Shown: piece by piece, positions 1-6,281 of the stretch | Numbering within the stretch: the stretch's first letter is position 1 | Layout: each line of letters begins with the position of its first letter | IMG/VR virus record: IMGVR_UViG_2675903559_000013 | Coordinates: 1-6,281 of that record | Length of the DNA stretch: 6,281 bases | Reading direction: 5' to 3' (one strand) | From: a virus | Lineage: Duplodnaviria > Heunggongvirae > Uroviricota > Caudoviricetes | Position numbers and translations under genes: made by a program | Notes under the pieces: model-generated | Databases searched by the model: none | Told to the model about the DNA's origin: nothing | What the model saw: only the letters and a program-made list of their open reading frames with translations

Positions 1-43
1 ACGGAACGGTATCTGATGGCCACGGGATTGGTGCACCGACTGG
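1..43. repeat. Near-identical 43-bp junction repeat, copy A (encodes [14 protein letters not shown])
   Basis: acggaacggtatctgatggccacgggattggtgcaccgactgg differs from 3941-3983 at one position. Weaker similarity continues to about 61 / 4001 (PPAEFYPVG vs LPPESYPVG). Confidence 0.75.
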
Positions 44-1825
44 ATAAAACTCTGCAGGAGGATGAGCCGAGGTGTAAAGCTGCGCCCACGGCGACCAGTT
101 TGCGTCGGTCGTATCCCGTCGTGAACGAATAAATGCCGGAGCATGAGCACCGCTTGTACCACTCCAGCCGATGAGTAACTCACCTTCGCCAACGGCTGTC
201 ATCCCTTTCAGGTGAATGATATTTCCATACGCTGTTGGATATCCGTTGTTATACACCTCGTATAACTCAAGACCTGCTGCCCCCTGCGTATTGTCTGTCA
301 GCGCGGCTACCCGACCTTTTGAAGCCAGATTAACTGATGATACTGCTGTTCCACCTGACGGTAGCGCCCCGATCTCTGATGCCGTTGGCTTATTTCTGGA
401 GTTATAGTCCCTTCGCCAGCCAGGTGAATAATCTGTTCCGTGATTAATATAGGTAAACTGGGCGTTGGTTGTTCCGCCACCGCTGGATGTGGTCGGAGTG
501 GTAATGCGGATCGTCATCGCTGACTTTATCCCCATTACTTCAATGACAGCTCCGGCGAGATGAATATTACCGCAGCCAGTATCAGTAATGATTTTATTAT
601 TGCCATAAGACCAGGAACCCTTGCACATCCAGTATGGATGGTTAAATGCTCCCTGAGAATCCAGCCACTCGATAAACTGTGCAGTCGTCCAGTTTCCTGT
701 TGTTGTGCTTACTGACCCACCGAAGGCACGGCAGGCACCAATATTTTTCGTAAAGGTGTCTTTGCCAGGGATATCCGCACCGTTCTGATCTTTCTGCAGA
801 CGTTTCTCAGCATTGTCATTGGCTGCTTTTACTGCCTTTGGCGTTGCCGCCAGCGTTTCAGACGTGCTGTTGGTCGCGCTGCTTAGCTGGATTATCCCTT
901 TCTGTGCTGTCGTTGCATCCTGTGCGGTGTATTTCCCGTTAGCCAGGTCATACGCGGCCTTAACGGCTTTTGGTGTTGCCGCCAGTGACTCGGAAGTGCT
1001 GTTAGTCGCACTACTGAGCTGTACTATCCCCTTTTTCGTCGTGCTCGCATCCTCAAGCGCCACGGCGGATGCAATATCCTCTGCCCGTTTTGCCGCTGTC
1101 TCAGCGCGCGTTGCTGCAGATTCCGCCGTACTTTTGCTCTGAGCTGCTGCCGTCGCACTACCAGCAGCCTCTGTCGCCTTCGTGGATGCCGTCGTGGCGC
1201 TGCCCTTCGCTGCTGACGCCTGTCTGGTCGCCTCATCTTTTGAAGCAGACGCCGATGATGCCGATGACGCCGCCGAACTGGCGGACGATGCGGCAGCCGT
1301 TTTTGAGGATTCTGCACGGGTTTCCGACGCTTTCGCGTTCGTTTCGGATGTCTTCGCTGCGGAAGCTGACCTCGCTGCTGCCGTGGCCTGCTCAGTGGCT
1401 TCGCCAGCCTTCGTTGTGGCTGTTGAAGCAGACGATGCGGCACTTTCTGCCGATTTTCCGGCGGCGGTGGCACTGGCTGAGGCCTGCCCGGCACTTGTTG
1501 ACGCGGCACTGGCAGACGACGCAGCCGCTGTTTTTGAGCCTGCCGCAGCTGAGGCACTCTGTCCCGCTGCCGTTTCAGAAGACCTGGCGTTCGTCTCGGA
1601 CGTTTTGGCCGCCTTCGCAGAATTTGCAGCCGCCGTCGCCGAGGAAGCTGCGCTACTGGCGCTTGATGATGCGTTCGTTTCTGATGATTTCGCTGCCTCT
1701 TTTGAGGCCGCCGCATCCCGGGCTGAGGTGGCTGCTTCTGACGCCTTCGTGGTCGCGGCGGATGCAGAAGTGGCTGCTGATTGTTGTGACGCTGCCGCAT
1801 TCGTTTCTATGCAGGGGATATTGAT
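1..1825 (-). CDS. Second side tail fibre paralog (stf-like), open at its 3' end beyond the window start; no canonical start codon for its first ~254 codons, so it may be a gene fragment or recombination cassette
   Basis: Not in the ORF track because it has no stop within the window. I translated the minus frame (codons at 3k+2) codon by codon from 1825 to 2 with no stop, about 608 codons. It encodes the Ala/Ser/Thr-rich shaft repeat ([15 protein letters not shown]...), two tail-fibre repeat motifs ([26 protein letters not shown] and [26 protein letters not shown]), a distinct central domain ([49 protein letters not shown]...) and the conserved junction [20 protein letters not shown]. The first in-frame ATG/GTG/TTG from the 5' end is GTG at 1061-1063; a gene caller would probably start there. 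Confidence 0.6.
768..1807. repeat. Direct repeat copy A of the stf shaft/tail-fibre-repeat region (about 1040 bp)
   Basis: Aligns with 5167-6074 at offset 4399 below the indel and 4267 above it. Hand comparison of two 60-nt windows gave 3/60 and 5/60 mismatches. This copy carries an extra 132 bp (44 codons). Confidence 0.85.
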
Positions 1826-2401
1826 TTATGGTTGACTTGGCCACTCGATATCTGGAGATAGTGATGTATCAACACGGTTCAGCAACACCCGATACTTTTT
1901 CCAGGCTTCAAGCAACGAGGTTTCTTCCTCCGTTGCGATTTCCAGATCTGCAGCATCCTGAAGCGGCGCAATATGCTCACTGGCTACCTGCATCAGGCTG
2001 TTTTTTGTTTCTTCCGCCTCCCGGATCCGGAATAGTTTTTCTGCTTCTGCATCTTTCACCCAAGCTGTACCGTTCCACTTCTGATATTCCCCTTCCGGCG
2101 ACAACCAAGTAACATTTTCCGGTAACGGACCGAGTTCAGAAATAAATAACGCGTCCCCTGATGCCACGTCATAAACCGTTTTACCCCGATGATCTTCAAC
2201 GAGATGCCACGATGCATCATCACCGTTGAAAACAGCCACGAAGCCTGCCGGAATATCTGGCGGTGCAATATCGGTACTGTTTGCAGGTAGACCTGTATGA
2301 GGTGGAATGTATGCATCACCTTCACCAATAAATTCATTAGTTCCGGCCAGCAGATTATAAATTTTTATGGTCCGTGGTTGTTCAGTCATTCTAAAATCCA
2401 T
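1826..2401 (-). CDS. tfa: Tail fibre assembly protein (lambda Tfa-like chaperone)
   Basis: The translation from the ATG at 2399-2401 reads [58 protein letters not shown]..., near-identical over most of its length to lambda Tfa as recalled. The track begins at GTG 2407, but that GTG is part of the Shine-Dalgarno AGAGGTG (2405-2411), so the ATG three nt after it (2399-2401) is the likely start. Stop is TAA at 1826-1828. Confidence 0.9.
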
Positions 2402-2404
2402 GTT

Positions 2405-2411
2405 CACCTCT
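2405..2411 (-). promoter_or_regulatory. Shine-Dalgarno (AGAGGTG) for tfa
   Basis: The minus strand reads TAG-AGAGGTG-AAC-ATG: the macro-gene stop TAG is immediately followed by AGAGGTG, then a 3-nt spacer, then the tfa ATG. Confidence 0.6.
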
Positions 2412-3300
2412 ACTTAATATCAGAGACAGAATATTGTTTATTGAGCGTATGGGTGGGAGCACCAATAACGATGCTACTTCCGTGGCTATGTGCGCCAGAG
2501 GTGAGATTGCCTACGGGATTTTCTGGATTAAACCGGTGTGTATGCGAATCAGGGCGAGAGCGATTATTAGTCAGCACGTCATCAGCCTGATGCACATGGC
2601 TAATACAGAACTGCCCGGAACGTGAGCAATACGTCCGATAATCGCCGCATCCAATATATTTAGTATCCGCATAACGGCAAACAGAATTACCCGGACAGTA
2701 TGCATATGTGCCAAATACTGCCGACTGGCGGGAGTGTGCGTATTCCCAGTTAATTGATTCTGTTTTCTTATTAAAGTTATCCCATGCCTGCTTCATTTGC
2801 CGGGCAACGCTTTCAAACGGAACCTGACCACATCCGGCCCCCATTGCAGGGAATACCACCGTCTTTATTTTCCTGTCTGTCGTTGCGTTTTTATTGTGCT
2901 GAAAGATGGCAAGCAGAGCGGCCCAGGTTGCATTATATACAGCGTCTGTTCCGTCAATTGTCAGCGGAACACGCATTGTTGGCGCATGTACCAGCCAGGG
3001 GTGATGATTATGCCCCGTTTCAATTACAAATGCAGAACCTACAGGCTGTTCGCCTAGATATTCACGAAGAATATGATTCTGAACGCGGGACTGTAACTGA
3101 GTACCGAAGAATGCGGTAATGGCGGCATCAACGCCGCCATCCATCAGGCCGAAACTATTTGCCGCACTTACCATGCAGTCAAATTCTCTGATTGTTTCAA
3201 ATGGCTTTCCGACAATATTCACATTATCTGCGGTTGCAAATACCCGCTTAAATGCTTCAGCCATTTCTGTTACTGGTGCAGAAAGAATGAGCGTAATCAT
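2410..3300 (-). CDS. Macro-domain protein (ADP-ribose-binding/hydrolase fold) with a Cys/His-rich C-terminal extension; function unknown
   Basis: 296-aa ORF. Macro-domain signature motifs: [21 protein letters not shown] (aa 41-61; compare YmdB/MacroD D-x-I-V-N-A-A-N...G-G-G-V-D-G-A-I), [21 protein letters not shown] (aa 88-108) and [14 protein letters not shown] (aa 148-161; compare S/VAFPAISTGVYGYP). The C-terminal ~110 aa has 5 Cys (C202, C208, C218, C225, C232) plus His-rich stretches. Start ATG at 3298-3300 overlaps the stf TGA stop (ATGA), with GAGG at 3306-3309 five nt upstream. Stop is TAG at 2410-2412. Confidence 0.82.
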
Positions 3301-6281
3301 GCAAGCCTCACAATATAGTTAAATGCGATGTTTTTGACGGTGTTTTCCGCGTTACCAGCAGCGTTAACGGTGATGGTATGTCCATGTGAACCAATCGCAA
3401 CGGAGTGCGTGTGTGCACCAATACCGACAGTATGTGCGTGTGCACCTGCAGATGCTGCTGTGCCGGACAGTGAGTGGCTATGATTACCATCTGTACTGGT
3501 ATTAGCTAACCACCCCGTAGACATACCTACTGAGCCTTGTACACCCCAGGTATTTTGACCTGAGCTTGTATAACCATATTGATAAGTATCTTTAAAAACA
3601 CTGGGGTTAAATCGACGGCCATCTCTATGGCTGTGATTACCAGCTGCATTCGTGCTGCCACTTAAACTATGGGTATGCGCACCAGTGTTATTCGTGGATT
3701 TAGTGCCGTAATCAAACGACGATGTGGTTTTCGTCCCCAAATCCGTACTGGATGCGCTGGCGCTGTGGGTATGCGATTTAATGCCATCCTGTTCCTGAGA
3801 CAATACGGCACGACCACTGGCGGGCTTGCCCTTAATCGTCCAGCCACGCAAATCAGGGATCACGCCTGACGGATAAGCGGCAGCAAGTTTCGGGTAGGCA
3901 GATTTGTCAAAAGTCTGCCCCTGCATCAGGGCATAACCAGACGGAACGGTATCTGATGGCCACGGGATTGGTGCGCCGACTGGGTAGCTTTCTGGTGGAA
4001 GATTTTTCGAGGTATAAACTTCTGCCCAGTCTTCCTCAAAACCATAGCCATCTCTTGAAGAACGGTAGAACAGACCACCATTTCTGTAATGCGCCTTCAT
4101 CTGCAGGGTCCGGCAACTTCCGACTCCGGTATAGAAGTTAACCAGAATATAGCTGTCGCCAGAGCGGGTGACATTGTAAGCGCCTGATTCGGCATTCCAG
4201 GGAACGCCACCATCCGCATCGGCATATGTATCCGTTGCCCTTCTGGCAAAAGCAGCCACATGCGCGGCGGTTAAAGTAATATCTTTGGAACCATCAAACT
4301 CAACACCAGAAACCCGTCTTGGCGTTTGCAGCTTTGTTGCTGTTAATGCATTACCGTTCAGACTTGCGGACAGTTTGGTTCCAATAACCAGTTCGCCGGT
4401 TGCGTTATCAATAGCAAACGGTCTTAATGTATTCCAGCCACCATAAACATCACCTTGATTGGTAAGCAGCAGGTAAGTTTTAGCGCCATCATTACGCCAT
4501 AATGCCCCATACTCCCCACCTATCATTCGAATCTGATTACCACCACGCGCTACAATTTCGTCTGTGGCAAAAAGTTTTTTGCACGACAAGTTATCGTTAA
4601 CGATTAACGAATGAGACTCATAAAAACCACGCCCACTCTTAAAATCAAGGATAACGTCCGCCGCGATACATTCAGTCGCCGGATTTGTTGCCCCAAACTT
4701 ATAGGTCGTATCATTAACAACGAGATCAGCACCAGGTGCGGATATTGACAGGCCATCTTCGATAAACGCAAAAACAGGGAAAGCAGCGCCATCAACATAG
4801 AACACAGAGCGCAAATCATCGCCCTTATTACTCATCATTATTGAGTGGATGGCTCGTTCATTGTTTTGATATTGCCAGAACATTCCATAAGCATAACGCC
4901 CCCTGTCAGTCCAGCCACCAGGCATAACAAATCCGTTAAACTCGCAGTTATTCATCGGATCGCCTGCGGTTCGCGTTGCCGTGGTGATAATGACCCTTGA
5001 TGCCAGTTCGCTTACTGAGCCAGCAGAACGCATAACAACAACAGGGTAATATTTTCCAGATATTGCACCTGCAGGAGCGTTAACCCGCACATAACGCATA
5101 CCACGCTTATCAGCAAAGTCTGTTTTACTGACCGCGTTAATGTTGTTCAGGAAGCGTCCCTTATCGGGTATATCAGCGCCGTTCTGGTCTTTCTGCAGAC
5201 GTTTCTCTGCATTGTCATAGGCTGATTTTACTGCCTTTGGCGTTGCCGCCAGCGTTTCAGACGTACTGTTGGTCGCACTGCTGAGCTGTACTATCCCCTT
5301 TTTCGTCGTACTTGCATCCTCAAGCGCCACGGCGGATGCAATATCCTCTGCCCGTTTTGCCGCTGTCTCGGCGCGCGTTGCCGCGGATTCCGCCGTACTT
5401 TTGCTCTGTGCTGCCGCCGTCGCACTGCCAGCTGCCTCTGTCGCCTTCGTGGATGCTGTCGTGGCGCTGCCCTTCGCTGCGGACGCTTGTCTGGTCGCCT
5501 CATCTTTTGAAGCAGACGCCGATGATGCCGATGACGCCGCCGAACTGGCGGACGATGCGGCAGCCGTTTTTGAGGATTCTGCGCTGGTTTCCGACGCTTT
5601 CGCGTTCGTCTCGGATGTCTTCGCTGCGGAAGCAGACCTCGCTGCTGCGCTGGCCTGTTCAGTGGCTTCGCCAGCCTTCGTTGTGGCTGTTGAAGCAGAC
5701 GATGCGGCACTTTCTGCCGATTTTCCGGCGGCGGTGGCACTGGCTGAGGCCTGCCCGGCACTTGTTGACGCGGCACTGGCAGACGACGCAGCCGCTGTTT
5801 TTGAGCCTGCCGCAGCCGAGGCGCTCTGTTCCGCTGCCGTTTCAGAAGACCTGGCGTTTGTCTCAGACGTCTTTGCCGCCTTCGCGGAATTGCCTGCCGC
5901 CGTTGCCGAGGAAGCGGCACTACTGGCGCTTGATGATGCGTTCGTTTCTGATGATTTTGCCGCCTCTTTTGAAGCCGACGCATCCCGGGCTGAGGTGGCA
6001 GCTTCTGACGCTTTCGTGGTCGCGGTGGATGCAGAAGTGGCTGCTGATTGTTGTGACGCTGCCGCATTCGTTTCTAACGTTTTCGCCGCACCGGCACTGG
6101 TAGCCGCCGCGCTTTTTGAGGACTCTGCAGCGGCAGCACTTTTTGAGGCTTCAGTGGCCTTTGTTGATGCCGTTCCTGCGCTGGAAGACGCTGACTGAGC
6201 CGACGAAGCGGCCTGTCCGGCTGACGTGCTGGCTGCACGTGCTGAATCTGCAGCATCAGTCGCATGGGTTGCCGCCTCACG
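3297..6281 (-). CDS. stf: Side tail fibre protein (lambda Stf-like), 5'-partial; the N-terminus lies beyond the window end
   Basis: The track ORF 3297..5330 ends ...[47 protein letters not shown], matching the lambda Stf C-terminus as recalled. It also carries [26 protein letters not shown] (tail-fibre repeat motif) and [35 protein letters not shown] translated the same frame upstream of the track's GTG (5328-5330) codon by codon to 6281 and found no stop and no ATG/GTG/TTG; it encodes Ala/Ser/Thr-rich ...AAKTSETNA... repeats typical of the Stf shaft. The track start at 5330 is therefore only the first in-frame start codon, not the real start. Stop is TGA at 3297-3299. Confidence 0.92.
3306..3311 (-). 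promoter_or_regulatory. Shine-Dalgarno (GTGAGG) for the macro-domain gene, embedded in the last codons of stf
   Basis: The minus strand reads AACTATATTGTGAGGCTTGC-ATG-A: GAGG lies 5 nt upstream of the ATG, and the ATG overlaps the stf TGA stop, consistent with translational coupling. Confidence 0.55.
3941..3983. repeat. Near-identical 43-bp junction repeat, copy B, inside stf at the central-domain/C-terminal-domain boundary
   Basis: acggaacggtatctgatggccacgggattggtgcgccgactgg; direct orientation relative to 1-43. Confidence 0.75.
5167..6074. repeat. Direct repeat copy B of the stf shaft/tail-fibre-repeat region (about 908 bp)
   Basis: Same alignment as above. Homology ends at ...cgtttcta (1807 / 6074), after which copy B continues as stf coding sequence whereas copy A abuts the tfa stop 18 nt later. 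Confidence 0.85.

Follow-up and report, generated by a model that had tools for sequence, protein, structure and literature searches.

The 43-mer that occurs twice in the window (the whole 6,281-nt stretch of phage DNA analysed here) is very probably the edge of a gp37/Stf-type tip that two tail fibre genes have in common, one copy of which is seen at position 1 by way of a contig break. On this reading two side tail fibre genes of one E. coli strain, stf1 from an N15-like linear phage-plasmid and stf2 from a Qin-like lambdoid prophage, would carry the same tip module, and the assembler, unable to pass the repeat, would have stopped the stf2 contig 43 nt into the shared tip. Only 43 nt would be visible, and these starting at position 1, because the stf2 contig stops inside a longer repeat. 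All genes of the window are located on the minus strand, and its features are as follows.

1 to 43, minus strand: second copy of the 43-mer, the predicted first 14 codons of the stf2 collar domain, cut by the contig end (position 1 ends CXBG01000283.1)
44 to 760, minus strand: stf2 "B-type" central domain, of the Qin-like prophage type (100% identical to a prophage fibre of E. coli NH-21)
947 to 1808, minus strand: stf2 shaft, Ala/Ser-rich with fibre repeats (93.5% identical to 5214 to 6075, ungapped, over 862 nt)
1809, unstranded: scaffold gap, where the public record reads N and the window A, the sole difference from CXBG01000283.1; it splits piece B (1 to 1808) from piece A (1810 to 6281)
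1810 to 1819, unstranded: second arm of the hairpin directly after tfa, TGCAGGGGAT; the apex marks the start of contig piece A (full hairpin in plasmid pAH01-1)
1826 to 2407, minus strand: tfa, tail fibre assembly chaperone (Pfam Caudo_TAP, E=1e-43; PHROG 105)
2410 to 3300, minus strand: macro-domain gene between stf1 and tfa (Pfam Macro, E=8.6e-19)
3297 to 6281, minus strand: stf1, side tail fibre gene, N-terminus lost at the contig end (colinear with N15-like phage-plasmid contig L007)
3297 to 3983, minus strand: predicted gp37-type tip of stf1 (collar, His-box needle, head), 228 aa plus stop codon (2XGF, E=5.5e-86; Collar, E=3.7e-12)
3941 to 3983, minus strand: first copy of the 43-mer, within the complete stf1 tip (in the 994-aa fragment, the Collar match begins with residue 769)
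3984 to 5150, minus strand: stf1 "A-type" central domain, including a domain like the T4 gp34 C-terminal trimerisation domain (Pfam Gp34_trimer, E=2.9e-27)
5214 to 6075, minus strand: stf1 shaft region homologous to the stf2 shaft (repeat of 947 to 1808)

The two copies of the 43-mer are in direct repeat and have a sole mismatch at position 35 (A versus G), as had been stated in an earlier note on this DNA; the mismatch falls in a glycine codon (GGT/GGC) and is synonymous. The chance expectation for such a match was 0 (200 dinucleotide-preserving shuffles), and on the minus strand both copies encode the same peptide, which includes PVGAPIPWP. Similarity between the two fibres is not lost abruptly at position 43, with 28 of the 45 bases at positions 44 to 88 identical to their stf1 equivalents. 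The domains upstream of the repeat had been described as unrelated; this holds for the bulk of the central domains, but not for a short homologous lead-in, the 30 residues just upstream of the motif being 43% identical between stf1 and stf2 (E=0.003 in a single comparison).

The second fibre gene, stf2, is 5'-truncated, running from 1808 to 1 and off the end of the window. Among 5426 complete E. coli genomes, 800 have a match to at least 80% of its B-type central domain. Within the homologous shafts, the 49 nt from 1760 to 1808 are an exact repeat of 6027 to 6075. The lambda-type Stf N-terminal domain phage_tail_N (PF08400) was present in near-identical full-length relatives, the N-terminus of stf1 lying beyond 6281. 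Long ORFs (217 to 309 aa) cover the Ala/Ser-rich shaft in other frames and on the opposite strand, between 1024 and 1835 and between 5269 and 6198; these are by-products of a GC-rich periodic composition and not genes. The Gp34_trimer match in stf1 is a second T4-like module in a lambdoid side fibre, its counterpart being in the T4 proximal long fibre.

The 43-mer appears to be the 5' edge of a receptor-binding tip module that the two fibres share, approximately 690 nt long and of the T4 gp37/lambda Stf type. Residues 769 to 816 of stf1 matched the Pfam Collar profile (PF07484) over positions 1 to 57 of 57 with a score of 46.4 bits, above the gathering cutoff of 24 (E=3.7e-12), and residue 769, at the first position of the profile, is the V of PVGAPIPWP. 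The C-terminal residues of stf1, approximately 228 to 231 in number, matched the T4 gp37 tip (PDB 2XGF) with an E value of 5.5e-86 (query 20 to 250 against chain 27 to 242), and the alignment runs from the motif through the His-box needle to a common C-terminus. Homology to the gp37 tip extends over the collar, needle and C-terminal strands, and the putative His-box (GxHxH) motifs of stf1 (SHTHS, GAHTHS, GNHSH, GAHAH, GAHTH and GSHGH) were aligned with the gp37 boxes, which in the T4 needle serve to coordinate iron. Since both the Collar match and the 2XGF alignment start at the motif, it is the first strand of a folded Collar domain or gp37-type tip rather than the short conserved linker for which the earlier note had taken it. 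Residues 814 to 860 of gp37 resemble the gp12 collar (Leiman et al., PMC3004832), and in more than 200 phages homology is limited to the last ~215 residues, gp37 812 to 1026 (Magaziner and Salmond 2022, PMC9659904). Lambda Stf has the gp37 tip in common and binds OmpC (PMC12617516).

A chaperone gene, tfa, is found downstream of stf1 with the macro-domain gene in between. The macro-domain protein is 296 aa in length, its gene start overlaps the stf stop, and its C-terminal tail is Cys/His-rich and resembles the fibre His boxes only marginally (E=0.035). The protein, which may be fibre-associated or act in anti-defence, belongs to PHROG 2613 (unknown function) and is encoded in N15-like phage-plasmids and in Qin-like prophages, e.g. 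STEC434; a search for literature relevant to this gene found none.

The surroundings of the motif were compared in 270 instances of P[VI]GAPIPWP taken from IMG/VR, GTDB species representatives and 50%-identity protein representatives. The 95 residues upstream fell into at least 25 families without detectable mutual similarity, and downstream of the motif a collar was always recognisable. Because it follows at least 25 unrelated upstream families, PVGAPIPWP is a genuine module boundary at the protein level. The earlier note had placed the motif at a recurring domain boundary and had proposed counting the distinct domains that it joins in other fibres; the comparison bears out that placement, with one collar-type sequence downstream. 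The GTDB instances were mostly from Enterobacterales, with others from Aeromonas and Photobacterium. Many of the 70 GTDB matches came from Photorhabdus, in which three or four separate copies of PVGAPIPWP were found per genome (L204, L205 and L220 in Photorhabdus namnaonensis; L219, L227, L239 and L246 in P. caribbeanensis), suggesting that these genomes encode multiple fibre or tailocin tips.

In 34 non-redundant genes, third-position entropy was 1.42 to 1.99 bits of a possible 2 within the motif and 1.41 to 1.99 bits in the conserved collar codons downstream. Since the wobble positions of the motif are near saturation and vary as much as those of neighbouring codons, the motif is conserved purely at the protein level.

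The earlier note had proposed that the repeat is a recombination hotspot, in which case the 43-mer would be a localised site of homologous recombination with exchanges taking place preferentially inside it. Exchange itself is evident: among genes with the exact 43-mer, central types A (stf1) and B (stf2) are each paired with many tip variants, and in close relatives tips and central domains have been reshuffled, with exchanges spread over the whole conserved tip. For a hotspot it can be said that position 35, although only 9 nt away from the divergence point, occurs in all four combinations of allele and central type, and that r2 to central type, 0.65 at 9 nt, has dropped to 0.00 by 48 nt, values for tip SNPs being at most 0.12 at 48 nt or more from that point; these r2 values are descriptive only, as the IMG/VR sequences used were chosen for the exact 43-mer and are related by descent. 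Two IMG/VR hybrids (L086 and L128) switch from A-type to B-type 15 codons upstream of PVGAPIPWP, a crossover that also speaks for exchange near the motif, and the homologous lead-in thus serves as a crossover zone as well. However, background linkage within the collar is equally low (mean r2 of 0.14 below 25 nt and 0.07 at 25 to 49 nt), so that the decay at the boundary is unexceptional. Any exchange between a central domain and a tip must, moreover, end in the last shared bases, and the pattern is expected without a hotspot. With linkage equally low everywhere in the collar and no excess decay at the junction, we consider a localised hotspot in the 43-mer improbable.

The repeat itself appears to be hundreds of bases long, and its length in the window is set by where the stf2 contig stops. 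The 21 bases that precede the 43-mer in E. coli NH-21 match window positions 3920 to 3940 exactly. When 48 natural B-type genes were compared with the stf1 tip of the window, median identity was 93% over the 43-mer and the next 300 nt, and the exact run ending at position 34 was typically 77 nt long. IMG/VR loci with an exact 43-mer numbered more than 120, and in all of them the tip-side sequence was near-identical, with no more than 2 of 30 bases different. B-type fibres in intact genomes thus run on beyond position 1 into this same tip, which makes position 1 an assembly break and the coincidence of the repeat with position 1 an assembly artefact. The tip of stf2 in the source strain is inferred from relatives that are 97 to 99% identical over 1 to 1808, and would be of the same kind. 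Similarly, 6 of 120 IMG/VR sequences with the 43-mer end 32 to 75 nt past the motif, and these ends have the appearance of assembly breaks at the tip repeat. One 938-aa protein (P0001) contains the motif twice: a B-type central domain leads through collar and needle as far as the head region, where the sequence jumps to an A-type central domain with a complete tip, either by natural fusion or through a further misassembly at the tip repeat.

The window was found to be the reverse complement of an entire public record, GCA_001250655.1/CXBG01000283.1 (6281 bp), with a single-base difference. That the repeat begins exactly at position 1, as the earlier note had remarked, is true but trivial, position 1 being the physical end of the public contig. 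The ambiguous base of the record at 1809 became a plain A in the window, hiding a scaffold join. Because the record has an N at this position, the window consists of two contigs that a single N links into a draft scaffold, and positions 1, 1808, 1810 and 6281 are all contig ends. A single N is presumably the scaffolder's mark for a non-positive gap. The earlier note had cautioned that an assembly break at a repeat was possible and had proposed inspecting the source assembly upstream of position 1; the public contig CXBG01000283.1 ends there, and the caution proved right, the window being a whole draft scaffold with position 1 inside a longer repeat.

The two pieces have different relatives. 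Piece A, from 1810 to 6281, is 99.3% identical to and colinear with the N15-like phage-plasmid contig L007, and N15-like phage-plasmid relatives carry protelomerase and sopAB. An identical macro protein was found on 10 N15-like phage-plasmid contigs, with tfa followed by sopB in all 10. Piece B, from 1 to 1808, is 97 to 99% identical to Qin-like lambdoid prophage fibres, and alignments to natural loci break exactly at 1808/1810. In a by-eye comparison of strings, a natural stf2 gene (L060) continued past the equivalent of 1808 with the same bases as window 6077 to 6281. The stf1 fragment, as translated from the window edge, was found on exactly one public contig, CXBG01000283.1. Per E. coli genome, the median number of places matched by the window is 3, and three of the four contig ends, all but 1810, are within sequence of which E. 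coli genomes have several copies. The 1810 end is the apex of the hairpin that follows tfa; in N15-like phage-plasmids the hairpin is near-perfect, ATCCCCTGCA-T-TGCAGGGGAT (L001, 3990 to 4010; pAH01-1). A single-N join to such a hairpin is unusual. Two other origins of the 1809 junction had been considered, namely a chimeric read and a genuine SbcCD-like illegitimate recombination event at the apex of the hairpin; both were dropped on account of the N in the record. An attempt to derive a single assembler k-mer size from the overlaps into repeats gave inconsistent values, with 34 exact nt at position 1 and 49 at 1808.

If the two fibres were nonetheless truly adjacent, the N15-like phage-plasmid would have a promoterless, 5'-truncated stf2 right after tfa as a silent cassette, and the expressed central domain and tip would be replaced by recombination, for which the 93.5%-identical shaft and the common collar would provide the homology. 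The scaffolder did place the two contigs next to each other, leaving only a minimal gap, and the stf2 fragment runs in the direction of stf1, to which it is 93.5% identical over 862 nt. The join, however, is an N and not sequence, and the junction at 1809, searched for as a 38-mer or as 261 to 341 nt across, was found in none of 5426 complete E. coli genomes, PLSDB and INPHARED, nor in IMG/VR, GTDB representatives and JGI metagenomes. In every close relative tfa is followed by sopB, and both ends of the stf2 fragment fall within multi-copy fibre sequence, as contig ends do. True adjacency of the two fibres is accordingly very unlikely, and the replacement of expressed segments from a silent cassette deserves as little credence; the reading of the second fibre as a neighbour of the first is unsupported, a scaffold N lying between them.

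That the 43-mer is or contains the site of a site-specific recombinase, e.g. a Pin/Gin/Cin-type invertase crossover site, is hardly conceivable: stf-associated invertases have been proposed as drivers of ancient fibre exchanges, according to a statement cited within PMC3945230, and invertase genes adjoin tfa in related prophages, but the window has no invertase gene and no inverted copy of the 43-mer (both strands, up to 3 mismatches), its two copies both being direct, no inverted repeat of 20 nt or more was found around stf-tfa-pin in phage Kati, a relative that does have an invertase, and the wobble positions, which a DNA site would conserve, are near saturation (1.4 to 2.0 of 2 bits in 34 genes) with no excess conservation at the nucleotide level. 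With no inverted copies, no invertase gene and variable wobble positions, an invertase crossover site is largely refuted.

The preferred reading, a shared tip whose edge is exposed by a contig break, has close parallels. The last 228 residues of stf1 align with the T4 gp37 tip (2XGF) from the motif to the C-terminus, His-boxes included. Unlike gp37, which sits on the distal half-fibre of a myovirus, the predicted tip is here on a lambdoid side tail fibre; the head (specificity) region of stf1 also differs, with indels, and the chaperone of the stf1 locus is of the lambda Tfa type (Caudo_TAP). [quoted passage not shown] The window differs from lambda Stf/Tfa in having a macro-domain gene between stf and tfa, and its A and B central domains are unlike those of lambda. 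Contig breaks and scaffold joins at multi-copy prophage tail fibre genes are likewise found in short-read assemblies, and the window ends and the flanks of the N are mostly multi-copy sequence, the window being different only in its single-N join to the hairpin after tfa.

The evolution of tail fibre genes as mosaics, with exchange at conserved segments, was reportedly described by Haggard-Ljungquist in 1992, Sandmeier in 1994 and Tetart in 1998. In such mosaics, also treated by De Paepe (2014, PMC3945230), short conserved stretches bound the segments that unrelated phages exchange, as they do here, whereas at the present junction there is neither an invertase site nor a localised hotspot. Lambda recombines with the stf-tfa regions of Rac and Qin by relaxed homologous recombination (De Paepe 2014, PMC3945230). 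In the fibres studied here, exchange may likewise proceed by ordinary homologous recombination (Red/RecT/RecA-type) through the conserved tip and the conserved N-terminal shaft, which is 93.5% identical between stf1 and stf2. The motif would be the N-terminal boundary of a portable, self-folding tip that is assembled with the Tfa chaperone and has been fused to many unrelated shafts. The joint may always be fixed at PVGAPIPWP because a fibre fused anywhere other than at the domain boundary would neither fold with the Tfa chaperone nor be kept, and the position of the joint would then reflect selection for folding rather than special recombination-site DNA.

Both the portable gp37/Stf tip (from approximately gp37 residue 812) and the mosaicism of fibres are established, and what is new here is bookkeeping only, namely the hidden N in the scaffold and the unsupported adjacency of stf2 to stf1. 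In draft assemblies, prophage fibre genes collapse or break at the shared tip, and scaffolders can juxtapose unrelated fibre fragments. Where a "two-fibre" locus or a repeat starting at position 1 is met, the record should be checked for Ns and contig ends before it is interpreted. For fibre engineering, the natural joint is immediately before PVGAPIPWP, where at least 25 unrelated shafts are fused to the tip, and conservation there is at the protein level only.
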